Source of the DNA: Candidatus Iainarchaeum sp.
GTDB taxonomy: Archaea; Iainarchaeota; Iainarchaeia; Iainarchaeales; JACQJH01
Length of the DNA stretch: 32,000 bases
Direction of reading: 5' to 3'
NCBI GenBank assembly: GCA_016205145.1
Contig: JACQJH010000001.1
Location: forward strand, 450,001-482,000
Shown: positions 2,032 through 30,534 of the stretch, in pieces
Position numbering within the stretch: the first letter of the stretch is position 1
How the letters are laid out: each line of letters starts with the position of its first letter
The notes under the pieces: generated by a model
The model's input: only the letters and a program-made list of their open reading frames with translations
The model's database searches: none
Told to the model about the DNA's origin: nothing
Position numbers and translations under genes: made by a program

Positions 2032-2089
2032 GTTTCTGCAAAAATATCTGTTAAAAACTTTAAAATAATTTTTGGAAAGGGGGAGTTTG

Positions 2090-2920
2090 ATGACAAAACT
2101 TGGGGAAATGGACGCAAAATCTTCTGCGCAGATTCCAAACAGCTTGGTTCTCGCGGCAAGCATATTTATTTCGGCGCTGATTTTATCGGCATCTGTCCTG
2201 ATGGTGGGCAATTCCATTACAACTGAAATTTCAAAGCTTTCAGGCCTGGCGCTTGCGCCGGCAAATGCAGGCGGAACAGGAACCCAAGAGCAAAACGTTC
2301 CTTCGCCCGCGCAGGCTGCGCCTTCTCCTGAGCCGGCGGCGCCCGAAATTTCGCTGAAAACGGTTTCAGGCAATGCAGCCGGAGTCATGGGCGAGGACAA
2401 TGCGCCGGTTACAATCGTGGAATATTCCGATTTCCAGTGCCCGTTCTGCAGGCGCCATTACACTGAAACGCACCAGCAGCTGATAGACAATTACGTGAAG
2501 ACCGGCAAGGCAAAGCTTGTTTTCAAGGATCTGCCTTTGGACTTCCATCCTTCGGCTTCAATGGCCGCGAACGCGGCAAGGTGCGGCGCGGAGCAGGGAA
2601 AGTTCTGGGAAGCGCATGACGCAATCTTTGACATGCAGCAGGCAAAGGATCCCAGCGGGGGAACCGTGCAGTTTTCTGCGCAGGACGTCAAGGATGCCGT
2701 CGCGAAGATTTCCGGAATCGACGCAACAAAGTTCAATTCGTGCGTTGACAGCAGCAAGTATGCAAGCGATGTGAAGGCAAGCTACACCGAAGGCTTTTCC
2801 ATCGGCATAAACGGCACGCCGAGCTTTGTCATCGGACCGACGGACGGCAAGGGCCAGATTGTCGTTGGGGCGCAGCCTTTCGCGACATTCAAGGCGGTCG
2901 TAGACGGGTATTTGGGCTGA
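2090..2920 (+). CDS. membrane-anchored DsbA-family thiol:disulfide oxidoreductase (CPFC active site)
   Basis: Contains the motif EYSDFQCPFCRRHY and the DsbA helical insert (FHPSA...ARCGAEQGKFWEAHD). It has an N-terminal TM and a Pro/Ala-rich linker. I chose ATG 2090 because GGGGGAG lies 4 nt upstream; the track start 2072 is an alternative. Confidence 0.85.
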   Translation: MTKLGEMDAKSSAQIPNSLVLAASIFISALILSASVLMVGNSITTEISKLSGLALAPANAGGTGTQEQNVPSPAQAAPSPEPAAPEISLKTVSGNAAGVMGEDNAPVTIVEYSDFQCPFCRRHYTETHQQLIDNYVKTGKAKLVFKDLPLDFHPSASMAANAARCGAEQGKFWEAHDAIFDMQQAKDPSGGTVQFSAQDVKDAVAKISGIDATKFNSCVDSSKYASDVKASYTEGFSIGINGTPSFVIGPTDGKGQIVVGAQPFATFKAVVDGYLG

Positions 2921-2989
2921 AACCCAAATACCCCACTTTCTTTCTTTTCATTTTTTTGCGGGCTGGTGCAATTGGATTTTTTTGATTCC

Positions 2990-3517
2990 ATGAACGCGAA
3001 AACCGCGCATCTTTCCAGAGCTTTCCGCATTGTGTTTTCCCGGCCCAAATATTCGCTTCTTGCCATTTTTCTTGCCATGGCTCTTTTTTTGGGTGTAAAC
3101 TTTCTTGTCAACTGGCGCCTGCTTTCGGGTTTCGTGCTTGGAAACTTTCCGCTGTCAAACAAAATCACGGTCCTTTCCGGATTAGCGCAGGGAAGCCTGC
3201 TAAACAACACGACTGAAACTTTTTTTTCCTTCGCCGTCGTGTCATTGCTAATCGGCGTGAACGTTTCGCTTTTCGCCTATCGCATCAGGCATTCGGGCTT
3301 GGACAAAAAGGCGGGCGCGAGCGGCATTCTGGGCGGGTTTTTCGGGCTGTTTGCCGCGGGCTGCACGGCCTGCACGCTTTCGCTTGTGGCATTTTTCGGT
3401 TTCGCGGGATTGTTTGCGCTGCTGCCTTTCAGGGGCTTTGAAGTGTGGGCATTGGGAATCGCGGTCCTCATGTTGAGCATTTACTGGAATTCGAAAAGCA
3501 TCTGCGGAGTCTGCTAG
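2990..3517 (+). CDS. 4-TM membrane protein, CxxC paralog 1 (TM3 GCTACT, C-terminal SICGVC)
   Basis: Four hydrophobic segments, a basic TM2-TM3 loop (YRIRHSGLDKK), an intramembrane CTAC and a terminal CGVC. It is a paralog of 8247-8717 and 11225-11701. The start is ATG 2990 or GTG 2966. Confidence 0.75.
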   Translation: MNAKTAHLSRAFRIVFSRPKYSLLAIFLAMALFLGVNFLVNWRLLSGFVLGNFPLSNKITVLSGLAQGSLLNNTTETFFSFAVVSLLIGVNVSLFAYRIRHSGLDKKAGASGILGGFFGLFAAGCTACTLSLVAFFGFAGLFALLPFRGFEVWALGIAVLMLSIYWNSKSICGVC

Positions 3518-3529
3518 CAGTTCGGGGGA

Positions 3530-4096
3530 ATGCGCATGGGCCTGACAAAACACGAAAGGAAACAGCTGAAAAAAACGGAACGGCTTGAAAGCGAAAGGAC
3601 CCTTGGCGAAAAAAAGCGGAAGGAAAATTTCCTGAAAAACGCGGGCATGGCAATCCTTGCAATCGCGGTTGTCGCGGCAATCGCCTTTTTTGCGTTGCAG
3701 GCAAATGCCAACAGGCCCAAACTGGACACGCGCGGCATTTCCTTTCCGTTGGTGAACGTGCACTGGCACGCCACGCCCCGCATTTTTTTGTGCGGCGGGG
3801 AAAAGTTGATTCCGACGCCGCCTGAAACAAATCCTTTGCTGCACACGCATGAGGACAGGCTCATCCACATCGAAGGCAGCGTTTCCGGGCCGGAGCAGAT
3901 AACCCTGGAAAGGTTTTTTGACGGCATCGGCATAAAGTTTTCTTCAACCGGAATCTGGGGCAAAAGGAACGGCGACACCTGCGAAAACACGGGCAAGGCG
4001 GGAAAGGTTTCAATGAAGGTCAACGGTTCCGCAAACACTGAGTTCCAGAATTTTGTGCCAAAGGACGGCGACGTGATAGAAATTCGTTTTGAATAG
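3530..4096 (+). CDS. membrane-anchored exported protein with HWH / HTHED motifs (unknown function, possible metal site)
   Basis: 188 aa with a K/E-rich N-terminus, one TM, then VNVHWHATPRIFLCGG...LLHTHEDRLIHIEG...VNG...DGDVIEIRF. GGGGG precedes ATG 3530/3536. Confidence 0.7.
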   Translation: MRMGLTKHERKQLKKTERLESERTLGEKKRKENFLKNAGMAILAIAVVAAIAFFALQANANRPKLDTRGISFPLVNVHWHATPRIFLCGGEKLIPTPPETNPLLHTHEDRLIHIEGSVSGPEQITLERFFDGIGIKFSSTGIWGKRNGDTCENTGKAGKVSMKVNGSANTEFQNFVPKDGDVIEIRFE

Positions 4097-4106
4097 GCGT
4101 TGTGAC

Positions 4107-4301
4107 ATGAATAAAGTGAAACAAACCGCGTTGTTCACCTGCCCGGAATGCGGCGCAAAATCGGAAATAGCGGTTCCAACCGGCAGGTGCCTTGCCTTTC
4201 ACGAATGCGTGGCATGCCATAAAATCATCGCGGCAAAAAAATCCTGTTGCGTCATCTGCGACTACTCCGACAAGAAGTGCCCTGTTTCAGCAAAACACTG
4301 A
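4107..4301 (+). CDS. small Cys-rich protein resembling the GDCCVxC-domain family (10 Cys in 64 aa)
   Basis: Sequence MNKVKQTALFTCPECG...FHECVACH...KKSCCVICDYSDKKCP. It lies 10 nt after the previous stop. Confidence 0.6.
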   Translation: MNKVKQTALFTCPECGAKSEIAVPTGRCLAFHECVACHKIIAAKKSCCVICDYSDKKCPVSAKH

Positions 4302-4364
4302 CTGGCCGCACTTTTGATTGTTTGGCTTTTTTTTGGCGCTCAGGGGCTGTTCCGCTTTTTCCAC

Positions 4365-4411
4365 ATGGTTTCAACAACGGTTATCTATGGTTTCAGCCGC
4401 ATTGTTTGCAT
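4365..4411 (+). promoter_or_regulatory. shared promoter/operator module, copy A (ATGGTTTCAAC-N11-ATGGTTTCAGC-N7-TTTGCAT)
   Basis: It aligns colinearly, with no indels and 37/47 identity, to 10681-10727. The first spacer contains a TATA-like TTATCTAT. It lies 42-88 nt upstream of ATG 4453. Confidence 0.55.
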
Positions 4412-4452
4412 CAGAGCCTGATTCAGGCAATGTTTTTGCGGAGGAGACGGAA

Positions 4453-5130
4453 ATGCAGGGTTGTTGCGGGGAAGGGCACAAGTCCGGTTCCCATAAGTCT
4501 GGTTCGGCTGGCCAGCAAGCGGAATTCAAAACCAGTGCCGGCGGCAAAAAGCTGGGTTTTGGAAAAACCGCATTGACTGTGGTTTTGGCCTTGGCTGTTG
4601 TAGCAGGACTGCTGTTTTTCCTTCGCCCCGGCTCGACTGGACAGGTGTCCGCAACCGCGACGGGCAATACTGTCGGTGCTGTGGCGCCGGGTTTTGAGTT
4701 GAAGGACATTGCCGGAAACAGCGTGAAGCTGAGCGATTTCAAGGGCAGGGCTGTCATACTTTTTTTCAACGAGGGCGGAATGTGCTATCCTTCGTGCTGG
4801 AACCAGATAAAGGCTCTGGCAACGGATGAAAGGCTTAACAACGAAAACGTGGCGTCTTTCTCCGTGGTGGTTGACAACACTTCGGACTGGGAGAAAATCA
4901 CGGCTCACGTGCCCGGCTTTTCGCAGTCGGGCCTGCTCTTCGACACTTCAAAGGTTGTTTCGTCAAGTTACGGGGCGCTGAACATGCCGTCTTCGATGCA
5001 TGGCGGCATGATGCCGGGGCACACATATTATATCATCGGAAAGGACGGCAAAATAAAGTTCATTTTCGACGACCCGCAGATGGGCGTGAGGAACGACCTG
5101 CTTGCCGCTGAAATAGCAAAGCTGGTTTGA
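4453..5130 (+). CDS. membrane-anchored thioredoxin-fold (redoxin/TlpA-like) protein with an N-terminal MQGCCGEGH tail
   Basis: APGFELKDIAGNSVKLSDFKGRAVILFFNEGGMCYPSCW is a redoxin-type beta-alpha-beta with the Cys pair spaced CxxxC. It has one TM. I chose ATG 4453 because GGAGGAG lies 6 nt upstream and the promoter module would otherwise fall inside the ORF. Confidence 0.75.
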   Translation: MQGCCGEGHKSGSHKSGSAGQQAEFKTSAGGKKLGFGKTALTVVLALAVVAGLLFFLRPGSTGQVSATATGNTVGAVAPGFELKDIAGNSVKLSDFKGRAVILFFNEGGMCYPSCWNQIKALATDERLNNENVASFSVVVDNTSDWEKITAHVPGFSQSGLLFDTSKVVSSSYGALNMPSSMHGGMMPGHTYYIIGKDGKIKFIFDDPQMGVRNDLLAAEIAKLV

Positions 5131-5155
5131 CGGCTGGATTGTTTTTGGTGGTGGC

Positions 5156-6034
5156 GTGGGCGAACTGCTTTTAGGCGCGTCAATAATAACCGCTTTTGTG
5201 GCGGGAGTCGCGGCATTGTTCGCGCCGTGCTGCATTACCGTGCTCTTGCCCGCCTACCTCGGCTCGGTTTTCAGGCAGATGCGCACGGTTTTCCTCATGA
5301 CTTTCGTTTTCTTCCTGGGCCTGCTCGCGGTTTTCCTGCCGCTCGGCCTCGGCTTCGCGGCGCTCGGCGAAGCGTTCAGGCAGTTTCACGACGTCATTTT
5401 CGTCGGCGGAAGCGTTTTCCTCATAGTGCTTGGCGCCTCGATGCTTTTGGGAAAGCACTTTTCAATGCCATTTGCACCGCGCCCGTCTCCAAAAGTTACT
5501 GGTGCGGTTTCGGTTTTCGCGCTCGGCGTGTTCTCCGGCATAGCGACGCTTTGCTGTGCGCCCGTGCTTGCCGGAGTGCTGGCGCTTTCGATAATGCCGG
5601 GTTCGGTTTTCTGGGGCGGAGTCTACTCGCTGGCTTACGTGCTTGGCATGACGATTCCGTTGTTCGTAATTGCCTTCGCGCTTGACAAGTCGGATGCCCT
5701 TGAAAAAATCCGGCTGCTCAACAGGACCGTCGAATACGGCTTCGGCGGAGAAAAAATCAGCCTGCTTGCATCCGAAATGGTTGCAGCGTTGATGTTCATC
5801 GGAATGGGCTTGCTGACGATTTACTTTTTCATGACCGGGCAGCTTGCACAAAATTCCGGCTTCCAGGTTTCCACGAACGTGATGCTTGCAGGAGTGGCGG
5901 ATTTTGCCTCGAAGTATTTTTCGTGGGCACCGCCGGTTGCATTGGCGGGCGCGGTTGCGCTGATTTTGGCCGGCCTGGCGTTCATTGCCTTCAAAGAGAA
6001 GCATGGCCGGGGAAACGAAAAAAGGGAATCCTGA
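5156..6034 (+). CDS. CcdA/DsbD-family transmembrane thiol-disulfide (or thiophilic metal) transporter
   Basis: Polytopic, with two pseudo-repeats: FAPCCITVLLP (C25, C26) and TLCCAPVLAG (C133, C134). GTG start with GGTGGTGG upstream. It directly follows the redoxin gene. Confidence 0.75.
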   Translation: MGELLLGASIITAFVAGVAALFAPCCITVLLPAYLGSVFRQMRTVFLMTFVFFLGLLAVFLPLGLGFAALGEAFRQFHDVIFVGGSVFLIVLGASMLLGKHFSMPFAPRPSPKVTGAVSVFALGVFSGIATLCCAPVLAGVLALSIMPGSVFWGGVYSLAYVLGMTIPLFVIAFALDKSDALEKIRLLNRTVEYGFGGEKISLLASEMVAALMFIGMGLLTIYFFMTGQLAQNSGFQVSTNVMLAGVADFASKYFSWAPPVALAGAVALILAGLAFIAFKEKHGRGNEKRES

Positions 6035-6464: not shown

Positions 6465-8189
6465 ATGGCGGGATTTGATGGCAGGACTGTCATTGGCTTG
6501 GCTTTGGTGGCCGTAATCGTGTTTGGGGCGGCGTTTTACATTGGCACATCCGGAAATTCCGGAATGCGTTCAGAGACGCGGCCGGCCGGAAGCGCGGCCG
6601 GGCAAACGGGCGCGGCATTCCCTTCCGGTGAATTGTCCGCCGGCGACAGGGCCATGATGGAGCACTGCAAGTCCATGCCGCAAATGCCGGGGTGCGAAAA
6701 ATTCGCCGGTCAGGAAGCCGCCGCAAATGGCGGTGCGGGTGCAAACGCCGGTTACTCTGATTCAGTTGCCGGGCTTTCCGCGGCAGGCGGAACCGCGGTT
6801 TATGATGCGAAAGACGGCGGAAAAATAACCCTGTCAGCGTCGGCCGTCAAAAAAACCGTTGCCGGCACGGAAGTCAGGATGCTTGCATACAACGGCCAGA
6901 TTCCGGGACCCACGATAAGAGTGAAACAGGGAAGCTCTCTGGAAGTGGAATTCATAAACGGCCTTGACTCCGAAACGACTGTGCACTGGCACGGCGTGAG
7001 AGTAAAAAACGATTTTGACGGCGTTCCGGGCGTGACGCAAAAGCCGGTCAAGCCCGGGGAAAAGTTTGTCTACCCGCTGGAGTTTCCGGACGAGGGCATA
7101 TACTGGTATCATCCGCACATGAGAGAGGACTACCAGCAGGAGCTCGGGCTTTACGGCAACATCATCGTCGAGCCGTCCGATGAAGGCTCTTACAACAAGG
7201 TCAACCGCGAAATGACGCTTGCGCTTGACGACATTCTGATGGAAGGCAATGGCATTGCCGCGTTCTCCGCCGATTTTGCGACGCATTCCCTGATGGGAAG
7301 GTTCGGGAACGTGATGCTGGTCAACGGCAGTGACAAATTTGAAATGGCCGCGCTGAAAGGCGAAACTGTGAGGTTTTTCGTCACGAATGCCGCGAACGCA
7401 AGGACATTCAACTTGGTTTTCGGGGGATTGAAGTTGAAGGTTGTCGGCGCGGACAGCGGAAAGTATGAAAAAGAATTTTTCGCGGACTCGGTTGTGGTGG
7501 CGCCGTCGGAAAGGTACGTTGTGGAAGTGCTGTTTGACGGGGAGGGAACATACAACATCCTCAATTCGACGCCTGAAGGAAAAACGGTTCTCGGCAAAAT
7601 AGCCGTGTCGGGCCGGCAGGCGGAAGAGGATTATTCCAAGGAGTTTTTTGAAACAATGGAAAATTCCCGGGTTGCTGACAGCATTTCCGGCATGAGGCGG
7701 TATTTTGACAAGCCCGCGGACCATGAAATAAGAATCGGCGTGGACCTGATGGGCATGAGTCATGGCAGCATGGCGATGGCTCAGGGAACCGGCGGCATCG
7801 AGTGGGAGGACGAAATGCCGCAAATGAACCTGGCCATGAACAGCAGGATAATGGAATGGCAGTTCATTGACGTGAAAACCGGGAAAAAGAACGAGGGCAT
7901 AAGCTATGAGTGGAAAAAAGGCGACAAAATCAAGTTGAGGATTTTCAACGACCCGGATTCCGCGCACCCCATGCAGCACCCGATCCATTTGCACGGCCAA
8001 AGGTTCCTGGCCATAAGCAGTGACGGGGTGGAAAGCGAAAACCTGGCGTGGAAGGACACGGTTCTGGTCCCGTCGGGTTCCACGGCGGACATTCTTGTGG
8101 ATGTCTCGAATCCCGGAAAATGGATGCTGCACTGCCATGTCCCGGAACACATGGAAAGCGGAATGCACACGACGGTAAACGTAATATGA
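6465..8189 (+). CDS. multicopper oxidase (CueO/CopA-like cuprous oxidase), N-terminally membrane-anchored
   Basis: All four MCO copper motifs are present: HWHG, WYHPH, HPIHLHG and HCHVPEHMESGM. There are Met-rich segments (MMEHCKSMPQMPGC; MGMSHGSMAMAQG...MPQMNLAMNSRIM). GGAGGGCGGG lies upstream of the ATG. Confidence 0.92.
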   Translation: MAGFDGRTVIGLALVAVIVFGAAFYIGTSGNSGMRSETRPAGSAAGQTGAAFPSGELSAGDRAMMEHCKSMPQMPGCEKFAGQEAAANGGAGANAGYSDSVAGLSAAGGTAVYDAKDGGKITLSASAVKKTVAGTEVRMLAYNGQIPGPTIRVKQGSSLEVEFINGLDSETTVHWHGVRVKNDFDGVPGVTQKPVKPGEKFVYPLEFPDEGIYWYHPHMREDYQQELGLYGNIIVEPSDEGSYNKVNREMTLALDDILMEGNGIAAFSADFATHSLMGRFGNVMLVNGSDKFEMAALKGETVRFFVTNAANARTFNLVFGGLKLKVVGADSGKYEKEFFADSVVVAPSERYVVEVLFDGEGTYNILNSTPEGKTVLGKIAVSGRQAEEDYSKEFFETMENSRVADSISGMRRYFDKPADHEIRIGVDLMGMSHGSMAMAQGTGGIEWEDEMPQMNLAMNSRIMEWQFIDVKTGKKNEGISYEWKKGDKIKLRIFNDPDSAHPMQHPIHLHGQRFLAISSDGVESENLAWKDTVLVPSGSTADILVDVSNPGKWMLHCHVPEHMESGMHTTVNVI

Positions 8190-8717: not shown

Positions 8718-8756
8718 TCTGCTTGCATTTACATACAATCTGTTGCGGTGCTTGGA

Positions 8757-9455
8757 ATGGCGTTTCCTTTGAACCCCTGGCTTTTCGGCTCGGCCGCCCT
8801 GCTGTTGTTGTGGCTGGCCATATGGCTTTTCAGGCCCGCTTTGCGCAGGGAAATGCTTTTGGTCAGCCTTTTCACCGCGCCTTTGGGTCTGACGGAACCG
8901 CTTTTTGTGCCCGAATACTGGACTCCGCCTTCGCTGTTCAACCTTGCCGCCACAACGGGCTTTGACATTGAAAGCATAGTCTTCTGCTTTGCCGCCGGGG
9001 GAATAGCGGCGGTCATCTACGAAATCCTGGTGAAATCGAGGCACAGTGAAATGTCCATGAATGAAATGCGTTCTAAACGGCACAGGTTCCACAAAATCGC
9101 GCTCGCCTCTCCCGCAATCGTTTTCGTGCCCCTGTACCTTTTTTCCGGCCTGAACCCGATATATGTTTCAATAATTGCGCTGTTTGCCGGCGCAATGGCG
9201 ACTGTCGTGTGCAGGCCGGATTTGAAGAAACCGGTCTTAACCGGAGGAACAGTATTTTTGCTCATCTATTTCTTTTTCTTCCTGTTTTTGAGCGTGGCAT
9301 TCCCGGATTTTGTGCCGAACGCGTGGAATTTTTCGGCCATCAGCGGCATTCTTGTTTTCGGCGTCCCTTTTGAGGAGCTGCTGTTCGCGCTTTCCTTTGG
9401 AATGGCGTGGGCGGGCCTTTACGAGCATTTTTTCTGGAAAAAACTGGTTCGTTAG
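8757..9455 (+). CDS. polytopic membrane protein, possibly of the lycopene-cyclase-domain (CrtYc/d-like) family
   Basis: About 7 hydrophobic segments, with repeated motifs FDIESIVFCFAAGG and VPFEELLFALSFG that resemble the PxEE(x)LF signature. The functional assignment is weak. GTG 8748 is an alternative start. Confidence 0.5.
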   Translation: MAFPLNPWLFGSAALLLLWLAIWLFRPALRREMLLVSLFTAPLGLTEPLFVPEYWTPPSLFNLAATTGFDIESIVFCFAAGGIAAVIYEILVKSRHSEMSMNEMRSKRHRFHKIALASPAIVFVPLYLFSGLNPIYVSIIALFAGAMATVVCRPDLKKPVLTGGTVFLLIYFFFFLFLSVAFPDFVPNAWNFSAISGILVFGVPFEELLFALSFGMAWAGLYEHFFWKKLVR

Positions 9456-9485: not shown

Positions 9486-9911
9486 TCAGTGCGCGCCGCC
9501 GCCCTTGAAAGTCCGCGCGCAGTGCCTGCAGCAGAATTTCAGGGTTTTTCCGTTTATTTTTTCCGTGTGGCCGCCTTCATAGACCATGCAGGCGCAGTGC
9601 GCGCACTGCGAAAGCTTCGGTTCCACGGCAAGGTCTATGAGGCCGCCGAACCTGTGCAGCATCGACTTGCAGAACGCCTTGCCTTCCGGCGTCAGAGCGT
9701 AAACCTTTTTTTCCCTCGCGCCCTCTGATTTGACCCGGATGTATTTTGCCTTTTCAAGTTTTGCGAGGAAAGGGTAGATCTGGCCGGGTGAAACCCTGCT
9801 TTCGAGCCTTTCGCTTATCTCCTTTATGAGCTCGTAGCCGTGCCTGGGGCCGTCGCACAGAAGAAGCATGCAATAGAATTTGGCCATGTTTGTGATCCTG
9901 ATTTCTTTCAT
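9486..9911 (-). CDS. PadR-type winged-helix regulator fused to a C-terminal TRASH metal-binding domain
   Basis: The N-terminal half (LLLCDGPRHGYELIKEI...GQIYPFLAKLEKAKYI...YALTPEG) is PadR-like. The C-terminus CAHC-x20-CCRHC fits the TRASH pattern C-x2-C-x19-22-C-x3-C. Confidence 0.85.
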   Translation of the reverse strand: MKEIRITNMAKFYCMLLLCDGPRHGYELIKEISERLESRVSPGQIYPFLAKLEKAKYIRVKSEGAREKKVYALTPEGKAFCKSMLHRFGGLIDLAVEPKLSQCAHCACMVYEGGHTEKINGKTLKFCCRHCARTFKGGGAH

Positions 9912-10042: not shown

Positions 10043-10630
10043 ATGGTGGAAAAATCGGGTTTGCTGGCATTGGTTGTATTGGCGGGTTTAATCGCGTTGC
10101 CTGTTGCAATGGCGCAGGGTTCGGATGATTTTGCGCAGGCGAAGGCGCTGATCGACAGGAATGCGTCCTGCGGCAGCCTGAGCAGCGAACAGCTTGAACT
10201 GATCGGCGATTATGTGATGGAGCAGATCCATCCCGGCGAAGCCCACGAATATGTGGAATCGATGATGGGCGGCGAGGGCTCGGATAGCCTGAAACGGGCG
10301 CACATTGCCATGGCTTACAGGTTCTACTGTGCAGGCTTAGGTTCTGGGTTGAACGCAAACAGCCCGTATTATGGCGTAATGGGCGGCTATGGGATGATGG
10401 GTGGCATGATGTACGGCAACTATGGCGGGATGATGGGTTCTGGCAATGCCTATTCCACTTATGGGCTTATGGGATACGGCGGCGGAACCGCAAATTATCC
10501 TGGAATGATGGGCTATAATGCGTCAACCGGCGGCCTTGGCCTGCTTACGCAGGTCTTGTTTGTGGTGGCGCTTGGTCTCGCAGTTCTGTTCCTTGGCATT
10601 AAAGTCTTCGGGCAATTTCAAAAGCGGTGA
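10043..10630 (+). CDS. secreted Met/Gly/Tyr-rich protein with a C-terminal TM anchor (putative Cu(I)-binding)
   Basis: Signal-like N-terminus LLALVVLAGLIALPVAMAQG. A helical domain carries HPGEAHEYVESMMGGEG. A low-complexity stretch reads YYGVMGGYGMMGGMMYGNYGGMMGSG...PGMMGY. The tail is hydrophobic. Confidence 0.7.
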   Translation: MVEKSGLLALVVLAGLIALPVAMAQGSDDFAQAKALIDRNASCGSLSSEQLELIGDYVMEQIHPGEAHEYVESMMGGEGSDSLKRAHIAMAYRFYCAGLGSGLNANSPYYGVMGGYGMMGGMMYGNYGGMMGSGNAYSTYGLMGYGGGTANYPGMMGYNASTGGLGLLTQVLFVVALGLAVLFLGIKVFGQFQKR

Positions 10631-10796: not shown

Positions 10797-11228
10797 ATGA
10801 ATGAGGTTAAAGTCCAGCGTGTTTTCCTGTTGCTTGTGTTAGGCGCCCTGGTCGTGTTCGGCGGAATGGTTCTGTTTTGGTTTGGCGCTAATGCAGCGCC
10901 CGCCAGATCGGCATCGGTAAATAATCAGGGTATTGTTGCCGGAGGGAACGGCCAGGCACAGGACATTTACATCAGGGCGCTTTCAAGCGGAACCTATGAC
11001 AAAAGCGAGGTCACGGTAAAGAAAGGCGTGCCGGTCAGACTGCATTTTTCCGCTGACCCTGGCGCGGGCTGCGGAAGGTATCTGGTGCTATACGGCCTGA
11101 ACGTCAATGCGCTTTCCAAGAACGGCGAAGAAGCGGTTGTCGACTTCACGCCGCAACAGGAAGGCAGCTTTGAATACAATTGCGGTATGAGAATGTTCAA
11201 ACCCGGAACATTGAAGGTTTTGGCATGA
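10797..11228 (+). CDS. membrane-anchored cupredoxin-like domain protein
   Basis: One TM followed by VTVKKGVPVRLHFSADPGAGCGRYLV...VDFTPQQEGSFEYNCGMRMFKPGTLKV. This is the typical cupredoxin_1-type C...CGM.M pattern seen in cop operons. Confidence 0.75.
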   Translation: MNEVKVQRVFLLLVLGALVVFGGMVLFWFGANAAPARSASVNNQGIVAGGNGQAQDIYIRALSSGTYDKSEVTVKKGVPVRLHFSADPGAGCGRYLVLYGLNVNALSKNGEEAVVDFTPQQEGSFEYNCGMRMFKPGTLKVLA

Positions 11229-11701
11229 GCAGGCTTGAAGCTTTGGCCTTGGTGTTGTCGGAGCGCAGTCAGCTCGCAATATTTCTTGCGGCGTTTGCCG
11301 TGCTTTTGCCTTTGCTGGCAGTCAGCTCGGCAATAATTTCGCCGGTGGGTTTTGCGTTCAATCCTTTGGCTGAACCGCTTGGAATCGCTTTGACAATCGT
11401 CATTGCAATCCTGATGGGCCTGAACCTGACGGTCCTGTTGCATGCCCACGCACGCAATGCAAATGCAAAAAAGGGGACTGTCCTGTTCGGCGGCCTGGCG
11501 GCAACGTTTGCCACTGCCTGCCCTGTTTGCCCGCCGACATGGATTGTCCTGCTCGGCTTCGGCTCGGCCGCGGGCTTTCTTTCTGGAACCGGGATTTTCA
11601 TTGCAATTGGCAGCATAGTCTTGCTTTCATTGGCTCTTTACAATTCTTTGGGTTGCGCAGACGGAAACTGCGGGGTGGACAAGAATGGAAAAAATGATTA
11701 A
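11225..11701 (+). CDS. 4-TM membrane protein, CxxC paralog 3 (TM3 ACPVCP, C-terminal GCADGNCG)
   Basis: ATG 11225 overlaps the cupredoxin stop (ATGA). Cys99/102 lie in TM3 and Cys144/149 at the C-terminus. Same architecture as the other two paralogs. Confidence 0.75.
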   Translation: MSRLEALALVLSERSQLAIFLAAFAVLLPLLAVSSAIISPVGFAFNPLAEPLGIALTIVIAILMGLNLTVLLHAHARNANAKKGTVLFGGLAATFATACPVCPPTWIVLLGFGSAAGFLSGTGIFIAIGSIVLLSLALYNSLGCADGNCGVDKNGKND

Positions 11702-11888
11702 AGTGAAAGGCATGCATTGTAAGTCATGCGAAATCCTTGTCGCGGACTCCGTGTCTGAAATCAGCGGCGTGGAAAGCGTCAAGGCGGACAGCAGGAAGGG
11801 AACTGTTGTGGTGAATGTCCGGGATGCCGGGATTCTCGGCAGGGTGAAAGCCGCGATTGAAAAGGAAGGCTACAAGGTGGAAAACTGA
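11685..11888 (+). CDS. copZ: CopZ-like heavy-metal-associated (HMA) copper chaperone
   Basis: 67 aa with a GMHCKSC motif and a ferredoxin-like HMA length. GGGGTGGA lies 5 nt upstream. Confidence 0.88.
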   Translation: MEKMIKVKGMHCKSCEILVADSVSEISGVESVKADSRKGTVVVNVRDAGILGRVKAAIEKEGYKVEN

Positions 11889-12808
11889 TGGAATTCGAAC
11901 TTGAACTTGGCGGAATGTCCTGCGGCTCATGCGAGCGCATAATCGAAAAGGTTGCCGAGAAAGCCGGCGCGGAAGTCAAGGAAATCGACTCGCGCAAAGG
12001 CAGGGTCACAATCGTTTCCGAGGAATCCAAAATAGCCGGAATAAGGGAAGAGCTTGCCAAGCGCGGCTTTGCCGAAAAGGGCAGCAGGGAAGACGTGGGC
12101 AGGGGCGACCTGAAAAACGTTGTTGGCTACATTTTGGCAGTGCTGTCAATCCAGCCGCACGTCGAAGAGGAAGCCAGGCTCGTCAACCACGCCATTGCGT
12201 CCGCGATTATTTTGGCTGGGCTGAACATTCTGGCTTACCTGTTTTTTGTGCAGGGCCTGGAGAACGGCGAAAAGTACCTTCCATTCCTTGCATTGGCGAT
12301 TGTTGCGTCAATAACATCCGTTTTCGCGTACCTTCACGCCAAATGCTACCGTAAAATCATGTCCTGCCAGAACGGCATGATGGTCGGAATGACCATGGGC
12401 ATGGTTCCGGGCTTCATGGTCGGCGCAATCATTGCCGCGACAAACGGAATGTTTCTTGGCAGCGTGGCCGGAATTCTGACCGGCGCATGGCTTGGCCTGA
12501 AGAGCGGAAAATGCTGCGGCGTAATGGGCGCAATGGAAGGAGTCATGGCCGGCCTGATGTCCGGTTTGATGGGGCCGATGACAGTGATCATGACCCTCAA
12601 CGACAACATGCTCGTTCTGCTTTACCTGATTTTCGGAATCTCTGTTTTTTTGCTCGGCGGCCTGAGCTACATGCTGTACCGCGAGGAAGGCGAAACCCCG
12701 GTTGCGAACACAAAGCTGCCGGAATTCATTGTTCTCGGCATTGCGTTCAATCTTGTGCTGCTGGCGATAATGCTTTTTGCGGTTAAGGGGCCATTGAGGT
12801 TCGTGTGA
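11888..12808 (+). CDS. HMA domain fused to a Met/Gly/Cys-rich ~7-TM membrane domain (unknown family)
   Basis: The N-terminal 62 aa form an HMA domain with GMSCGSC. After a charged linker come TM segments including [18 protein letters not shown] and [30 protein letters not shown] overlap joins it to copZ. Confidence 0.75.
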
Positions 12809-12818
12809 GGGCGATGGC

Positions 12819-15275
12819 ATGAAAAAAATCACAGTCGGCATTAAAGGCATGCATTGCGCTTCCTGCGCCACGATAATCGAGCGTCGCCTCAAAAAAGTTG
12901 AAGGCGTGAAGGATGTCTCTGTCAGCGTCGCGGCAAACAGGGCGGCGATCGAATTTGATGAGGGCATTGCGGGCATTGAACAGTTTGGAAAGGCAGTGGA
13001 AAGTGCAGGGTACGAACTCGTCCAGCCGCAGGGGCAGGATTCCGGCGATGCGAAGATAACAATGCATGTAAAGGGCATGGATTCGCCGCATTGTGCGGGC
13101 ATTGTCGGGAATGCGCTCAAGGGAACCGCTGGAGTGAAAAAATTCGACCTCAGCTTCCAGAATGCCTCGGCAATGGTTGAATTCGATGCCTCCATCACCG
13201 GCTTTGATAAAATAAAGGCTTCGATTGCAAGGGCAGGCTATGATGCGGAACTGCTTGTCGGGGAGGAAACAGTGGACCAGGAGAAGGCCGCACGCGATAA
13301 AGAAATCGCGGAATTGAAGCGCAGGCTCGTTTTTTCGGCATTGCTGACCGTGCCGGTTGTCCTGCTTGCATTGCCGGAAATGCTGAAAACTGTTATGGCA
13401 TTCGAGTACCCGCAGTTCATAATGCAGAACATGGCTGCATTGCAATTGCTGTTTTCAACGCCGGTGATGTACCTTAACAGGGACATGTTTGTGAGGGGCT
13501 TCAGGGGGCTGTTGAATAACATGCCGGGCATGGACAGCCTTGTCGCTTTGGGCGTCGGGACAACCTATGCTTACAGCGCAATCGTGGCCCTGCGCATCAT
13601 TGGCGGAGTCATGTATTTTGAAACCGCTGCTTTGCTTCTCACGTTCATATTGCTTGGCAGGTACCTTGAGGCGATTGCCAAAGGAAAGACTTCCGAGGCA
13701 ATCAAGCGCCTTGTAGGGCTTGCGCCGAAAACCGCAATCGTGGTCAGGGCAGGAAAAGAGGTTGAAATTCCGATCAAGGAAGTTGTTGTCGGGGACATTG
13801 TCATTGTGAAGCCGGGCAGCAAGATTCCGGTTGACGGCGTCATAGTCGAAGGCGAAAGCAGCATTGACGAGAGCATGATTACAGGGGAGAGCATGCCCGT
13901 GCACAAGCGAAAAAATGACATTGTGATCGGCGGGACAATCAACGGCAATGGCTCTTTCAGGTTCAGGGCGACAAAAATCGGCAAGGACACAATGCTTGCG
14001 CAGATAATCCGTTTGGTGGAGGACGCGCAGGCAAGCAAGGCGCCGATCCAGAAGCTTGCAGACACTGTCGCAGGCTATTTTGTGCACGCAGTAATAGTGC
14101 TTGCATTGCTTGCCTTCGCTTACTGGTATTTCGTGGCAGGCCAGCCGTTTCTTTTCGCGCTCACAATCCTTGTTTCAACGCTTGTGATTTCCTGTCCTTG
14201 CGCAATGGGCCTTGCAACCCCGACAGCGGTCATGATTGGAACCGGCAAGGGCGCCGAGAACGGCGTGCTCATAAAAAACGCGGAGAGCCTTGAAATCCTG
14301 CATCAGGCCAAAACCTTTGTGTTCGACAAGACCGGCACAATCACCATGGGAAAGGCGTCGGTAACGGAAATCGTTCCGGTCGGAATCAAGGCAGCCGACC
14401 TTCTTTGCCTTGCGGCTTCCGCGGAAAAGAATTCCGAGCATCATTTAGCGCAGGCAATCGTGAAAAAGGCGAAGGAATCGAGGCTGAAAATTGCAGAACC
14501 GAAATCTTTCAAGGCGATTCCGGGGCATGGCGTCGAGGCAAAAGTCGGGGCGAAGAATGTTCTCATCGGAACTGTTGTCCTGATGAAAAAAAGCGGGGTC
14601 CGGATCGGAAACGATTTGGTTGGCAGGATGCAGTCGCTTGAAGAGCAGGGAAAAAGCGTTGTCCTTGTTTCGTCGGACGGAAAGCTTGTGGGAATGGTTG
14701 CGATTGCCGACACCATAAAAGAGCATGCTGCCGAGGCTGTAAGGCAATTGCAGGCAATGGGTTATGAAACCGTCATGATAACCGGCGACAATTCCCGCAC
14801 TGCAAACGCGATTGCAAAGCAGGCAGGCATTTCAAGGGTGCTGGCGCAGGTGCTTCCGTCGGACAAGGCCGCGGAAGTCAAGAAATTGCAGTTGAACGGA
14901 AGAAAGGTTGCCTTTGTCGGCGACGGCATAAACGATGCCCCGGCCTTGGCGCAGGCCGACATTGGAATCGCGATTGGCAGCGGCACCGACGTTGCGATTG
15001 AAAGCGGCGGAATAGTTTTGGTGAAAAGCGATTTGCGCGACATTGTGACGGCGGTAAAGCTTAGCAAATACACTCTCGGCAAAATAAAGCAGAATCTGTT
15101 CTGGGCTTTCGGCTACAATGCGGTCGGCATTCCGCTCGCGGCAGGCGCATTCTATCCTTTCACCGGCTGGCTTTTGTCGCCGGTCATAGCCGGAGCGGCA
15201 ATGGCTTTCAGCTCGGTAAGCGTTGTTTCGAACAGCCTGCTCATGCGCGGATGGAAACCGGATAAAAAGGTTTGA
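12819..15275 (+). CDS. copA: Cu(I)-translocating P1B-type ATPase
   Basis: 818 aa. HMA1 has GMHCASC. HMA2 is degenerate (GMDSPHCAG). It carries the TM CPC motif ([11 protein letters not shown]), DKTGT, MITGDN and GDGINDAP. Confidence 0.95.
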
Positions 15276-23278: not shown

Positions 23279-26200
23279 TCAGTAGATTATTTCCTTGCCT
23301 TTCATCGCGTCCAGGAAAATCGTGCGGTTCTTTCCGTCATAGCTTTTCAGCCTTCCCTCGTATGCCGGCATGTAAACGGTTTCGATTTTTTTGACGACGA
23401 TCTTGCTCCACAGCCTTTTCAACGATTCCGCCGCCTGTTCCTTTGAAACGCGCGGGGCCTCGATTGCCACGGATTCCTGCTGTTTCAATGGCAGGCCGTG
23501 CAGCGAATTCATTATGGGGTGCAGCGGGTTTGCGGGCAAATCAACGCTCTCGTTTAGCCTGAAGGAAGTTTCATTGTTCGCGGTTTCAATTTTGATTATG
23601 TTCTTGTCCGCGAGGCTTTTCAGCAGCCTCCTGAGCCTGGCCTCGTCCATGCCGGTTTTCTGCATCAATGCTTCCAGGCCGGCCTTATCCTTTTTGAGAG
23701 CGTTGAAGAGAATCGCCTCGTTTTCGTTCAGCTGCGAAAATTCCTTGAATCCGCGTGACTCCAAAAACTCGTTTCCGGCATAGTGCAGGAATTCGCCGCT
23801 CAGGGAATTGACGTATGCCTCGCCGACATTGAAAATTTCCTTGGAGCCGAAATAGTTGAATTTGAACGCGAAAACGGGAATGAATTTGAGGTAAACGCTT
23901 TCCAGCATCTCCTCCTTTCCGAAAAATCCCAAAAACTTTTTTTGCCGCATGGCATTGAACGCTTTTCTCGCGGCTTCCTCATTGACCTGCACCGGAAACG
24001 CGAGCAGTTCCGGCGGTTCCTGCACTCCGGCTGCGGTTTCAGGTTTCGGCGCCTCTTCCTTCAAAACCTTCTTTTCGATTTCCTCCGCCTTTCTTGTCGC
24101 CTCTTCGAGCTTTTTCTCCATTTCCTCTTCGTAGCCGGGCACGCTCACGGTCTGCTTTTCGGAGTCAAATTCTATTCCCTTGCGGTCGAGCTGTTCCATT
24201 ATGTCCGATGGTTCAATGTTCGCCTTGAACTTGTTGTTGACAGTGTTTATGATCTGGCGGATTTTTTCAAGCTCAATCACGCCTTCCTTTTCAATTTTGG
24301 CGAGGCACATTTCCAATGCAAGCTTTTTCGCCTTCTCCGGATCCAGGTCCTTCGACAGTTCTGCGGTTTCAGCTTCCCTGCCTTCGTGCTGTGACATTCT
24401 CGGCCTGACCCTCATTACGAACGCCCTGCTTGTCTCCTCGCGCCTGTCGCCGGTAAGCGCGGTTCCAACGGGAAGCGTTTTGATGAACGTGGGCTTCCTG
24501 AATTTTTTTGGAATCAGGGTGGGAGTCCTCTTGAAAACGGATTTTATGTCGTCGTCGAAGACAAGCTTGTGCGTCATTATTATGTCAAGCTGTGACAGCA
24601 CGTGCGAGTCGATTGCAGACGGCTGTTGTGTTGCGAAGACAAGCGAGCAGCCGGGCTGGCGGCCCTGCTTCACATATTCTATGAGCGAAGTTGTCGCAGG
24701 CGTCTTGACGTTTCCGCTCGGAATGAGCGTATGCGCCTCGTCTATGAACAGCCATGTCGGCGGAATCTCAAGCTCCATCATTTCATCCGCATCAACAGTC
24801 TTGTGCCTGCTAGCCGCCTCACGCCTTGTGGTTTTTTTGCGCGCTGCAAGAATGCGCCTGCCAAGAATGCCTATGACCAGCGCGGAAACATTGTCCTCAA
24901 GGAAAGAGGTGTCGATGATTGTGAGCTGGTTTTCCATGCTCAGTTCGCCCAGAGGTGTGCCCTTATCGGAGAAAACGCCCCAGTTTTTTGCGGCGTCAAA
25001 CCTTGAAACCAGCGCCCTGATAGAATCGGGCTTGTAGCCCTTGTCCGAGGAATGCAGTTCCTTGTCGTTTTCAAGGCAGTTTATCAGGTCGTCAAGCGTG
25101 TAATTGCCTTTTTTTCCCGCAATTTTCGGTCCTTCCTTCTGCTCGTAGCCGCTTCTCACCTTTGAAATGACCTTTTCTATGAGCAGGCCGCTCGGCGAAA
25201 ACCTTTCAATGCCGAATGTGAGGCACCAGTCGTCGGTTGAAAGCAATGAGGCGTGCATGGAAAACGTCGCGTCAAACGTTCCGCCCGGCACCTGGTCCTT
25301 GACTCCCGCAGGAATGAATACCTTGAGGTTGTCCAAACCCTGCGGTGTCAGATCCCATTTTGCAAGCATGCCAATTTCCCTTTCATCCTTGTTCGGGAAC
25401 CTCATCGACCAGAACACGCCGATGGGGTCTATCACGATTATGCCGACGTTCTTGTTTTTGTGCGCCAGCTCTTCCGCGAGAACGCCCAAAACGTAAGACT
25501 TTCCGGATCCGCGGGCACCGTTCACGAAAATGACGTGCGGGTTGAGGCTGTCCACCAATACATTGAAATCGTTGAGTTCGGAGTCCTGCACTTTTCCGAC
25601 AAACAGGCCGGCTTCCTCGCCGTACTTTTCAAACAACGACTTTTTCCTGCCGATGAACGCAATCTTTTTTTTCTCGTCAGACAATAAGCTGAGTTCGAAC
25701 CTGCCGCCTTCCTCGTCTCTCTCCTTCTCTTTCTCGGTTTTCGCCTCGACCGGGTTTGGCTTGTGCTGGTCGGAATAAATGTCCGCTTCGCGGATGCCGA
25801 CTTCCTTGTCGAACGGCAGGAGTTCATCCTTCTGCGCGTAAATGGATGCCTTCTCCAGAATGACGTCCTTTATCTGCTGCTTGTCCTCTTCCTCCAAGGC
25901 GATTTGTTCAAGCTCGTCGTTCATTTCAAGGTCGTCAGCTGCCTGCTTTTTGGCCTTGACTCCCGCCGCATCTAAATCCGTTTCCGCGCCTTTTCCCGCC
26001 CTGCCTTCGCCGGCAATGCCATTCCCGCTTTCCTTTGCCGCGGCGTTTTGGGCGGGTTTTTGTTTCGCCTGCCTTTTCCTTTTCACGCGCTTTTCATCGG
26101 GCGCCGCGCTTTCAATAACGGTTTCGTTTTCGAACCCGGCTTTTTCGGCCGGAACGCCTTTTCCTTTTTCCGCTGTTTCCGGCGCGTTTTCTTCTGTTAT

Positions 26201-26404
26201 GTTTTCGCCTTCTTCGCCCGCGCTTTTCGCCTTTTTTTCGGCTTTTTCCTTCAGTTCAATGGTCTTTTTCTTCCTTGCCTCGCGCGCCGCCTTGCGCTCG
26301 TTGCTTTCGCCCAAGACCTCGTCGAAAATGTCCTTGTCGTCCTCGACAAAAGAGGTCTCAATGACCTTCTCGTCATCGCTTTCGCTGGCTTCGGCTTCAG
26401 GCAT
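23279..26404 (-). CDS. 1041-aa FtsK/HerA-superfamily (DUF87-like) P-loop ATPase with an E/K-rich N-terminal disordered region and a C-terminal wHTH-containing extension
   Basis: Walker A VIFVNGARGSGKSY, Walker B WLFIDEAHTLIP, and SLVFATQQPSAIDSHVLSQLD plus VRPRMSQHEG typical of HerA-like ATPases. Residues 1-250 are low-complexity E/K/A. The C-terminus carries a wHTH-like stretch GLEALMQKTGMDEARLRRLLKSLADKNII. Confidence 0.8.
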   Translation of the reverse strand: MPEAEASESDDEKVIETSFVEDDKDIFDEVLGESNERKAAREARKKKTIELKEKAEKKAKSAGEEGENITEENAPETAEKGKGVPAEKAGFENETVIESAAPDEKRVKRKRQAKQKPAQNAAAKESGNGIAGEGRAGKGAETDLDAAGVKAKKQAADDLEMNDELEQIALEEEDKQQIKDVILEKASIYAQKDELLPFDKEVGIREADIYSDQHKPNPVEAKTEKEKERDEEGGRFELSLLSDEKKKIAFIGRKKSLFEKYGEEAGLFVGKVQDSELNDFNVLVDSLNPHVIFVNGARGSGKSYVLGVLAEELAHKNKNVGIIVIDPIGVFWSMRFPNKDEREIGMLAKWDLTPQGLDNLKVFIPAGVKDQVPGGTFDATFSMHASLLSTDDWCLTFGIERFSPSGLLIEKVISKVRSGYEQKEGPKIAGKKGNYTLDDLINCLENDKELHSSDKGYKPDSIRALVSRFDAAKNWGVFSDKGTPLGELSMENQLTIIDTSFLEDNVSALVIGILGRRILAARKKTTRREAASRHKTVDADEMMELEIPPTWLFIDEAHTLIPSGNVKTPATTSLIEYVKQGRQPGCSLVFATQQPSAIDSHVLSQLDIIMTHKLVFDDDIKSVFKRTPTLIPKKFRKPTFIKTLPVGTALTGDRREETSRAFVMRVRPRMSQHEGREAETAELSKDLDPEKAKKLALEMCLAKIEKEGVIELEKIRQIINTVNNKFKANIEPSDIMEQLDRKGIEFDSEKQTVSVPGYEEEMEKKLEEATRKAEEIEKKVLKEEAPKPETAAGVQEPPELLAFPVQVNEEAARKAFNAMRQKKFLGFFGKEEMLESVYLKFIPVFAFKFNYFGSKEIFNVGEAYVNSLSGEFLHYAGNEFLESRGFKEFSQLNENEAILFNALKKDKAGLEALMQKTGMDEARLRRLLKSLADKNIIKIETANNETSFRLNESVDLPANPLHPIMNSLHGLPLKQQESVAIEAPRVSKEQAAESLKRLWSKIVVKKIETVYMPAYEGRLKSYDGKNRTIFLDAMKGKEIIY

Positions 26405-30157: not shown

Positions 30158-30534
30158 CTGCAATTATTAACCTGTCTTTTGATGAAGCTATGGCAGTTTA
30201 TGAGGAAGTCATGCTTGCAACGGATTCGAAACCGGCTGTCAGGATTTCCGGCACTTTGGAGCACATCCTGCTTTCATGCGAGAATTCGTTTAACGGCGAA
30301 AATGATGCCTTGTTTTTCAAGGCGGCTTTTTTGCTAAAGGAAATAATTTCAAAGCACCCTTTTATGGATGGAAACAAGCGCGGCGCTCTGGCCATAACCG
30401 ATGCTTTTCTGAGCCAAAACGGACAATTTTTGGAGTTTGAAAGGCAGGATGTGGCATTTTTGGAAGAAATAGACTTCAAAAAACTGCGGGTTGGCACGAT
30501 AAAAAAATTTTTGGAGAAAAAGGTGAAAGTCTAA
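30154..30534 (+). CDS. doc: Doc (death-on-curing) / Fic-fold toxin
   Basis: 126 aa. HPFMDGNKR (nt 30355-30381) matches the Doc motif HxFx(D/N)(A/G)NKR. The ATG overlaps the trpE stop (ATGA). Confidence 0.8.
   Translation: MTAIINLSFDEAMAVYEEVMLATDSKPAVRISGTLEHILLSCENSFNGENDALFFKAAFLLKEIISKHPFMDGNKRGALAITDAFLSQNGQFLEFERQDVAFLEEIDFKKLRVGTIKKFLEKKVKV

Follow-up and report, generated by a model that had tools for sequence, protein, structure and literature searches.

To our knowledge, few membrane families are known to move copper, namely the P1B ATPases, the RND protein CusA, Ctr, CopD/YcnJ and MFS proteins of the CcoA type. In the CopC-CopD, PcoC-PcoD and YcnJ systems, a polytopic membrane protein is paired with, and sometimes fused to, an extracytoplasmic β-sandwich copper protein encoded in copper-resistance operons. 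The Cu(I)-selective filter of Ctr1 consists of methionine rings with MX3M spacing together with a glycine zipper (PMC6437178). Here, we describe an archaeal gene whose product shares features with some of these systems. It lies at positions 11888-12808 (+ strand) of a 32,000-nucleotide stretch of the Candidatus Iainarchaeum sp. genome (GenBank assembly GCA_016205145.1, contig JACQJH010000001.1, positions 450,001-482,000), referred to below as the window, between the genes for the copper chaperone CopZ and the copper ATPase CopA. The encoded 306-aa protein consists of an N-terminal heavy-metal-associated (HMA) domain, a short amphipathic helix and a domain of seven transmembrane (TM) helices rich in methionine and in glycine-zipper motifs.

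The likeness to Ctr1 (SLC31) encompasses intramembrane MX3M methionine ligands, a glycine-zipper helix, Cys and His residues at the cytoplasmic exit, and hand-over to a chaperone of the HMA fold (PMC6437178). However, Ctr1 is a eukaryotic 3-TM homotrimer with two methionine rings, whereas the window protein is a 7-TM bundle with a methionine stripe of seven positions. It gave no sequence match to Ctr1 and no fold match in a PDB library that should include Ctr1 structures, and its family is archaeal and situated in an efflux operon. With CopC-CopD it shares the combination of a membrane protein with an external β-sandwich partner, sometimes fused, but here the partner is of the CupA type (Cys plus CxMxM) and not of the CopC type, there is an N-terminal HMA domain, and no CopD Pfam match was obtained at E ≤ 0.1. 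In MerP-MerT, as in the MerTP and MerT-CopZ fusions, an HMA domain and a small membrane protein with cysteines at its cytoplasmic face pass a soft metal through the membrane, towards or away from HMA partners; the ligands of the window protein are methionine stripes instead of a CC pair in TM1, and there are seven TM helices instead of three. The CupA-CopA system of Streptococcus pneumoniae is similar in that the partner in the window is a genuine homologue of CupA that is anchored in the membrane and shares its locus with CopA. No 7-TM protein is encoded in the pneumococcal operon, and its CupA is described as facing the cytoplasm and delivering copper to a cupredoxin-type N-domain of CopA (PMC7558416), whereas CopA of the window has HMA N-domains and the cupredoxin is predicted to be extracellular. 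The resemblance to Ctr1, CopC-CopD/YcnJ and MerP-MerT is functional, and the protein is a member of none of them; membership of known families is limited to its HMA domain and to the CupA-like neighbour.

The 7-TM protein belongs to a conserved module made up of a CupA-like cupredoxin, HMA, the 7-TM protein itself and CopA. Its membrane domain defines an undescribed family, apparently with a new fold, that would do a known kind of job, the trafficking of copper across or at the membrane. We regard it as a membrane protein of a new family that binds Cu(I), probably translocates it and acts alongside CopA, and put the probability of this reading at roughly one half. The observation from which the work started, a first-pass annotation made from the DNA letters and a list of open reading frames (ORFs), is confirmed, and its interpretation is supported as far as computation reaches.

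Architecture of the 7-TM protein

The gene begins with an ATG codon in the ORF listing. The stop codon of copZ (TGA, 11886-11888) overlaps this ATG (11888-11890) as TGATG, and a gap of 10 nucleotides (gggcgatggc) separates the end of the gene from the ATG of copA at 12819. The DNA therefore bears out the coupling to copZ and the spacing to copA that had been described, and every peptide quoted in the first-pass annotation was found in the translation: GMSCGSC at residues 9-15 and the others at 150-163, from 164 and at 205-235, the last including KSGKCCG. A chance ORF was ruled out by the 170 homologues in 90%-identity clusters and the 380 clusters at 50% identity that are described below.

Residues 1-62 (11888-12073, + strand) form the ferredoxin-like HMA metal-binding domain, with C12-x-x-C15 encoded at 11921-11932. 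AlphaFold2 models residues 2-58 as β-α-β-β-α-β (strands 2-7, 29-34 and 39-43, helices 13-25 and 46-58), and Foldseek superposes this part on CopZ (6ff2 and 2qif) with a TMt of 0.79-0.80, a root mean square deviation (rmsd) of 1.6-2.2 Å and a probability of 1.00. The metal-binding loop GMxCxxC is present as G9-M-S-C12-G-S-C15, and the CxxC is kept in 50/50 of the N-extended family members. Taken singly, the window sequence scores 19.0 bits against Pfam HMA (PF00403), vs a gathering cutoff of 24.8; a profile of 42 family members matches dozens of solved HMA domains, among them those of ATP7B (5.6e-21) and CopZ (about 1e-5). The model, the superposition and the profile matches thus uphold the original description of an HMA fold with GMSCGSC at residues 1-62. 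The domain is like CopZ and Atx1 in its fold and its GMxCxxC motif and differs from them in its covalent tether to a large membrane domain and in its sub-threshold single-sequence Pfam score.

A short amphipathic helix (residues 75-86, 12110-12145, + strand), seen in the AlphaFold2 secondary structure and in the alignment, precedes TM1 and is also kept in membrane-only forms of the family. It is followed by the seven-helix membrane domain (residues 90-297, 12155-12778, + strand). AlphaFold2 returned a predicted local distance difference test score of 94.1 and a predicted template modelling score of 0.90 for the whole protein (93.9 and 0.90 for the membrane part alone) and placed the helices at residues 90-121, 127-153, 160-186, 188-210, 212-235, 241-267 and 277-297, with one-residue turns linking TM3 to TM4 and TM4 to TM5. 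Between residues 160 and 235, 14 of the 76 residues are methionine (18%) and 22% are glycine; the family means are 19% and 24.5%. In nine other proteins of the window methionine accounts for 2.7%, giving a binomial p for the enrichment of the core of about 1e-8. The roughly seven hydrophobic segments rich in Met that had been noted at the outset thus correspond to seven modelled helices and a real compositional bias.

The geometry of these residues was deduced from sequence periodicity, not from model coordinates. The methionines of TM5 (213, 216, 220, 224, 228, 231 and 235) line up as a single stripe over the whole length of the helix, with E217 among them, and the glycines of the same helix are offset by two residues, which places them on roughly the opposite face. 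From 213 to 235, this ladder measures about 33 Å. TM4 is an almost pure GxxxG x6 zipper, and TM3 has a glycine stripe with an adjoining methionine stripe (M164/165-168-172).

Conservation was counted in two sets, one of 42 aligned proteins and an independent one of 85 ORFs taken from genome loci. It is concentrated in a core formed by TM3, TM4 and TM5 (residues 160-235, 12365-12592, + strand), as defined by column conservation: 36/76 columns in TM3-TM5 are at least 90% conserved, vs 0-4 in each of TM1, TM2, TM6 and TM7. M164, M165, M168, M220, M224, M228, M231, M235 and E95 are invariant in 85/85 ORFs and likewise in the 42 aligned proteins. Nearly so, in the 85 ORFs, are M213 (84/85), M172, E217 and N186 (each 83/85), E266 (82/85), D239 (80/85), T185 (79/85) and Y261 (75/85). 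Glycine recurs at every fourth residue from 163 to 229, forming the zippers. H150 is found in 66/85 ORFs and is otherwise mostly Gln. TM1 has E95 at its start, TM2 has H150 and Y154 at its cytoplasmic end, and TM6 contains Y261 and E266. The motifs of the family are thus C-x2-GMMxGMTxGM in TM3, GxxxG x6 in TM4 and CCGxMGxMEGxMAGxMxGxMGxM in TM5, together with E95 and Y261-x4-E266; all are present in the window protein and are conserved in the 42 and in the 85 sequences.

The first-pass annotation had allowed that the Met and Cys positions might not hold among homologues. The opposite was found, with eight methionines kept in 85/85 ORFs, C160 in 80/85 and C210 in 70/85 (elsewhere mostly Ser, which replaces it in about 10-19% of members). 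Its remark that further cysteines occur at loop edges stands for C160 and C210, both conserved, and is weakened for C153 and C209, each of which is kept in only about half of the family.

No known family or fold accommodates the membrane domain. All of Pfam-A and NCBIfam were scanned at E ≤ 0.1, and 47 family members were also scanned individually. For the window protein, the matches were of the HMA type only and confined to the first ~55 residues, bar one chance, sub-threshold match of 24 residues to a type I toxin model (E 0.011, 16 bits vs a cutoff of 60), and the 47 members yielded no consistent known family for the membrane part. Weak matches to ECF_trnsprt (PF12822) in 4/47 members (best 2.1e-4, none in the window protein) and to Gly-zipper_YMGG in 3/47 were judged compositional; no ECF S-component structure was among the Foldseek matches of the full or the membrane-only model. 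Compared with solved structures in the PDB, the family profile found HMA domains only and left the membrane part unmatched, and a Foldseek search of 350,542 PDB chains gave no fold match to the membrane domain at E ≤ 0.001 with either model. Matches to a bacterial bestrophin, MlaE, MFS proteins and G protein-coupled receptors, with TM-scores of 0.14-0.26, rmsd values of 13-25 Å and E ≥ 0.1, were regarded as noise.

Individual candidates were set aside on similar grounds. There is no E1-E2_ATPase or Hydrolase match of the kind expected for a P1B-type ATPase, whereas the neighbouring copA matches at 2.9e-63, and when the profile is aligned to ATP7B, the stretches from the TM region score 1.0 and -2.7 bits. 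The Pfam-A scan that gave only HMA, and the lack of a consistent family among the 47 members, eliminate CopD/PcoD. Ctr (SLC31) is discounted by the seven TM helices, the absence of a Pfam match and the absence of any PDB fold above a TM-score of 0.26; all that the two have in common are the motif types MX3M and GX3G. The NCBIfam MerTP_fusion match comprises residues 3-50, which is the HMA part, at 14.4 bits vs a cutoff of 180. CcdA/DsbD_TM (PF02683) gave no match and the conserved cysteines lie at the cytoplasmic boundary; as a positive control, the CcdA encoded in the window at 5156-6034 matches DsbD_TM at 2.2e-7. An internal duplication of TM3-4 and TM5-6 was also rejected: both pairs begin with Cys and G/M repeats, yet the hhalign probability is 2%. 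The initial failure to assign the domain to CopD, CopB, CcdA, MerT or a P-type ATPase is therefore borne out by the absence of any Pfam, NCBIfam or PDB match outside HMA, and no match to a characterised non-metal transporter family was found.

A conserved copper module and its predicted topology

Used alone, the membrane domain retrieves 170 proteins at E ≤ 1e-3 (90%-identity clusters), and at the 50% identity level an exhaustive HMMER scan gave 380 clusters, of which 175 reach E ≤ 1e-10. Relatives are encoded in at least 332 genomes, counting one genome per species. Among the matches listed, the hosts are overwhelmingly DPANN archaea (Micrarchaeota, Woesearchaeota, Nanoarchaeia, Pacearchaeota, Aenigmatarchaeota and Iainarchaeia), with few elsewhere (Methanoregula, Methanosarcinales and metagenome-assembled genomes of Thaumarchaeota). 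Their source annotations are generic, for example 'hypothetical protein', 'heavy-metal-associated domain-containing protein', 'cation transporter' or 'copper chaperone CopZ'. A full-text literature search did not find the family described; the genome paper on Micrarchaeota Mia14 reports a copper island of a different, Thermoplasmatales type.

In the window, the gene is directly preceded by copZ (11685-11888, + strand), which encodes a 67-aa HMA chaperone (Pfam HMA, 48 bits; NCBIfam CopZ), and followed by copA (12819-15275, + strand), a P1B-type Cu(I) ATPase with E1-E2_ATPase (2.9e-63) and Hydrolase matches, two N-terminal HMA domains and a CPC motif. Further upstream is a CupA-type cupredoxin (10797-11228, + strand; Pfam Cupredoxin_1) with an N-terminal signal anchor, a single cysteine (C92) and a copper site at C129-G-M-R-M. 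This is a true CupA homologue (PDB 2mry/4f2e, E 9e-10) that also matches the cupredoxin-type N-domain of CopA (4f2f, 7e-7), and its single Cys and CGMRM align to the copper ligands of CupA.

Neighbouring genes were surveyed in 83 non-redundant loci, of which 52 have flanks of at least 3 kb. A CopA-type ATPase lies near the family in 78/83 loci and in 52/52 of those with adequate flanks. A Cupredoxin_1 gene is found in 74/83 (50/52), within 300 bp on the same strand in 58/83, and a small HMA gene in 67/83 (44/52), within 300 bp on the same strand in 50/83. The CxMxM motif is kept in 76/77 partner cupredoxins. Two gene orders predominate: in Micrarchaeota, as in the window, cupredoxin, (CPVC protein), copZ, 7-TM gene and copA; in Woesearchaeota and Nanoarchaeia, (hma), 7-TM gene and cupredoxin, with hma and copA further on. 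In a bacterial-type locus (L086), a fused member of the family, P0230, comes directly after CsoR and CopA. A role in copper metabolism is strongly backed by the presence of CopA in every locus with adequate flanks and by the CsoR-CopA pair beside the bacterial member. The first-pass annotation had suggested that the protein may be a stand-alone channel or permease; 'stand-alone' is not borne out, given that a CupA-type cupredoxin gene is nearly always present and is fused to the membrane domain in some relatives.

Fusions are frequent and informative. A survey of the HMA fusion across the family, proposed at the outset, showed that 50/85 ORFs have an N-terminal extension of at least 45 aa, all with CxxC, and that the remaining 35 consist of the membrane part alone, in many cases directly preceded by a separate hma gene. 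P0219 has two HMA domains. In P0181 and P0199, a CupA-like cupredoxin is fused at the C terminus, and P0230 (L086, 6001-7863, 620 aa) consists of the membrane domain, a SurA_N-like domain and a CupA-like cupredoxin; its gene precedes a BlaI/BlaR-like pair (Penicillinase_R plus Peptidase_M56). In P0231 (locus L085, 301-1800), HMA and TM1-5 are followed by one further helix and a HisKA_3/HATPase_c histidine kinase, which suggests a membrane copper sensor built from the family domain. In L085, a separate HMA gene lies upstream of P0231 and an overlapping gene downstream.

These fusions also report on topology. A histidine kinase must be cytoplasmic, and since that of P0231 is separated by six helices from HMA, the HMA domain should likewise be cytoplasmic and the end of TM5 outside. 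Domains of the SurA_N type are extracytoplasmic, which places the C terminus after TM7 outside. The distribution of Lys plus Arg is in keeping with this: loops 2-3, 4-5 and 6-7 contain means of 2.0, 1.1 and 2.7, vs 0.55, 0.0 and 0.1 in loops 1-2, 3-4 and 5-6, and the short C-terminal tail, also predicted to be outside, has a mean of 1.14. From the fusions and the positive-inside rule, we infer an N-in, C-out topology, in which the HMA CxxC, H150, C160 and C209/C210 would be located at the cytoplasmic face, N186 and D239 at the outer face, and the Met ladder across the bilayer between them. An N-terminal hydrophobic segment is present in 76/77 stand-alone cupredoxins, with a mean Lys plus Arg content of 2.0 before it and 0.46 after, an asymmetry that points to a signal anchor with the cupredoxin domain outside. 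The Cys/CxMxM site of the CupA-like partner is thus predicted to be extracellular.

A candidate Cu(I) relay and its alternatives

The anatomy of this ligand path, together with the precedent of the Ctr1 filter, is the basis for proposing that the protein translocates Cu(I). In the proposed mechanism, Cu(I) would leave the thiolates of CopZ or the HMA domain by ligand exchange, reach a putative Cys2(His) entry site (C160, C209/C210 and H150) at the cytoplasmic face, and then pass along the intramembrane thioether ladder to the extracellular cupredoxin, which would receive it. Such a relay would carry Cu(I) across the membrane without ATP and take part, next to CopA, in copper detoxification. 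Outward flow could be driven by proton antiport via E217, E95 and E266, or by capture and oxidation of Cu(I) outside. We consider outward movement the more likely direction, on the grounds that transcription of the gene is always shared with copZ and copA and subject to regulators of the copper-stress type, and that the invariant acidic residues in or at the ends of helices (E217, E95 and E266) could provide a coupling to protons; the argument is at its weakest where direction and coupling are concerned. In its most specific form, put forward tentatively and at slightly less than even odds, the proposal is that the family represents a new structural class: a 7-TM Met-ladder Cu(I) conduit, packed by glycine zippers and leading from a cytoplasmic HMA/Cys2His site to an extracellular CupA-type cupredoxin, which would serve as an ATP-independent relay beside CopA in DPANN archaea, some methanogens and a few bacteria.

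Several considerations weigh against this proposal. Transfer of Cu(I) from high-affinity thiolates to low-affinity thioethers is uphill, and there is no energy-coupling module to pay for it. With methionines on the exterior and within the membrane and cysteines on the interior, the system has a gradient of ligands like that of the importers Ctr1, CopCD and MerPT, which it also resembles in teaming a membrane protein with an external binding partner. In pneumococci, CupA is reported to work from the cytoplasmic side (PMC7558416), whereas its archaeal homologues are predicted here to lie on the opposite side. The fusion to a kinase shows that the domain is able to act as a sensor input, a role that calls for metal binding only and not transport, and the methionine stripes themselves, judging by their periodicity, may line either a continuous internal path or an oligomer interface.

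An importer comparable with Ctr1, CopC-CopD or MerP-MerT would turn the sequence of events around: the extracellular CupA-like protein would capture Cu(I), the Met ladder would conduct it inward down the electrical and affinity gradients, and the Cys2(His) site and HMA would receive it and pass it to CopZ and then to CopA or a regulator. Its purpose could be to clear Cu(I) from the cell surface or membrane, or to supply a sensor. The order of ligands, with thioethers on the exterior and within the membrane and thiolates on the interior, is as such a system would have it; no energy-coupling domain was found in the Pfam scan or the AlphaFold2 model, the external cupredoxin is the most constant partner even where HMA is missing, and Ctr1, in which Met rings and a glycine zipper are put to use, is itself an importer (PMC6437178). 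The case for import is thus to be taken seriously, but we consider it unlikely. The gene is always in the operon of the exporter CopA, with regulators of the copper-stress type (PadR-TRASH here, CsoR in L086), so that uptake would amount to a futile cycle. The demand for copper also seems low, to judge from a characterised Micrarchaeota genome that lacks heme-copper oxidases (PMC5498576), and a passive channel would not need the invariant membrane-embedded E217, E95 and E266. Alternatively, the protein might not translocate copper at all. It could be a buffer or tethered chaperone embedded in the membrane, which would concentrate Cu(I) there and dock CopZ/CopA, like the docking platform suggested in the first-pass annotation, or it could serve the CopA machinery as a subunit for copper sensing or regulation. 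The obligatory linkage to CopA (52/52), the fusion and fission of HMA with copZ-like genes across the family, and the use of the domain as sensor input in P0231 are all consistent with this, and there is a precedent in that membrane tethering of CupA matters for CopA-dependent resistance (PMC7558416). A dock confined to the cytoplasmic face would account neither for a Met stripe spanning all of TM5 nor for the invariant outer-end residues D239 and N186, nor would it explain why an extracellular Cu-binding domain is so closely paired with, or fused to, the protein; we regard this account as improbable. Far less probable is a thiol-redox conduit akin to CcdA/DsbD, in which electrons would be shuttled from the HMA CxxC to the cupredoxin Cys, keeping the latter reduced or reducing Cu(II) to Cu(I). 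CupA is able to reduce Cu(II) in vitro (PMC7558416), C160 and C210 are conserved together with the HMA CxxC, and genes for DsbA-like, redoxin and CcdA proteins lie nearby in the window and in L086. However, C160 and C210 both map to the cytoplasmic face and not to the middle of the membrane, C210 is replaced by Ser in a sizeable minority of members, the Met ladder would be without a function, and no DsbD_TM match was found, whereas the CcdA of the window does match. Thiol-redox neighbours are also not general, with CcdA in 1/84 loci and DsbA-like genes in 13/84.

Surrounding genes and biological meaning

Several other genes of the cluster and its surroundings are worthy of mention. Between the cupredoxin gene and copZ lies a gene for an accessory 4-TM protein of 158 aa (11225-11701, + strand) with an intramembrane ACPVCPP and a C-terminal C-ADGN-C. 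The gene overlaps its neighbours at both ends, the cupredoxin stop at its start (ATGA) and copZ at its end. The protein gave no Pfam, NCBIfam or PDB match; 18/83 loci contain a homologue, for the most part in this same position, and the protein may represent a further uncharacterised membrane component concerned with copper or thiols. The first + strand gene of the cluster (10043-10630, with the ORF listed from 9965) encodes, according to its translation, a protein that has a signal peptide, is anchored by a C-terminal TM segment and contains a stretch of low complexity rich in Met, Gly and Tyr (GYGMMGGMMYGNYGGMMGSG...PGMMGY). It has no Pfam or NCBIfam family match, similar proteins occur in 6/83 loci, and it may be a surface Cu(I) sponge. 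Divergent from the cop cluster is a PadR-type regulator with a C-terminal TRASH Cys cluster (9486-9911, - strand; PadR 1.2e-16, TRASH_HVO_1752_C 7.2e-5). This unusual architecture makes it a candidate archaeal copper sensor of the operon; PadR genes lie near the family in 14/83 loci. A membrane protein with a Lycopene_cyc domain (8748-9455, + strand) stands beside the PadR and cop genes, and the same is seen in two distant archaeal loci (L001, 9057-9740, and L033, at about 7236).

Upstream of the cop regulator by 1.3 kb is a gene for a three-domain multicopper oxidase (6465-8189, + strand) that is membrane-anchored at its N terminus and has an insert rich in Met and Cys (MMEHCKSMPQMPGC); no twin-arginine motif was seen in its sequence. 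A thiol-redox set occupies 2072-6034 (+ strand) and comprises a DsbA-like thioredoxin (2072-2920), an AhpC/redoxin-type protein (4318-5130) and the CcdA/DsbD_TM protein already mentioned (5156-6034). L086 holds a similar mix of Redoxin, SCO1 and two DsbD_TM genes. Thiol-redox genes beside a copper island would fit the presence of Cys-containing copper proteins outside the cell. None of these was retained as a core member of the module, the multicopper oxidase being near the family in only 5 of the 84 loci, CcdA in 1, redoxin in 1 and DsbA in 13. Two further genes, for a 1041-aa HerA/DUF87-type ATPase (23279-26404, - strand) and a small Fic/DOC-domain protein (30154-30534, + strand), are unrelated to the copper cluster.

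If the relay proposed here is correct, the family would represent a new solution to the problem of selective Cu(I) permeation, in a new fold and with an explicit path that runs from thiolates through a seven-step thioether ladder to a cupredoxin. The location and role assumed for CupA-type cupredoxins outside the streptococci would then need to be revised. It would also explain why a gene of this kind is a fixed component of copper operons in hundreds of genome-reduced DPANN archaea, where the genes that are retained are presumably important.

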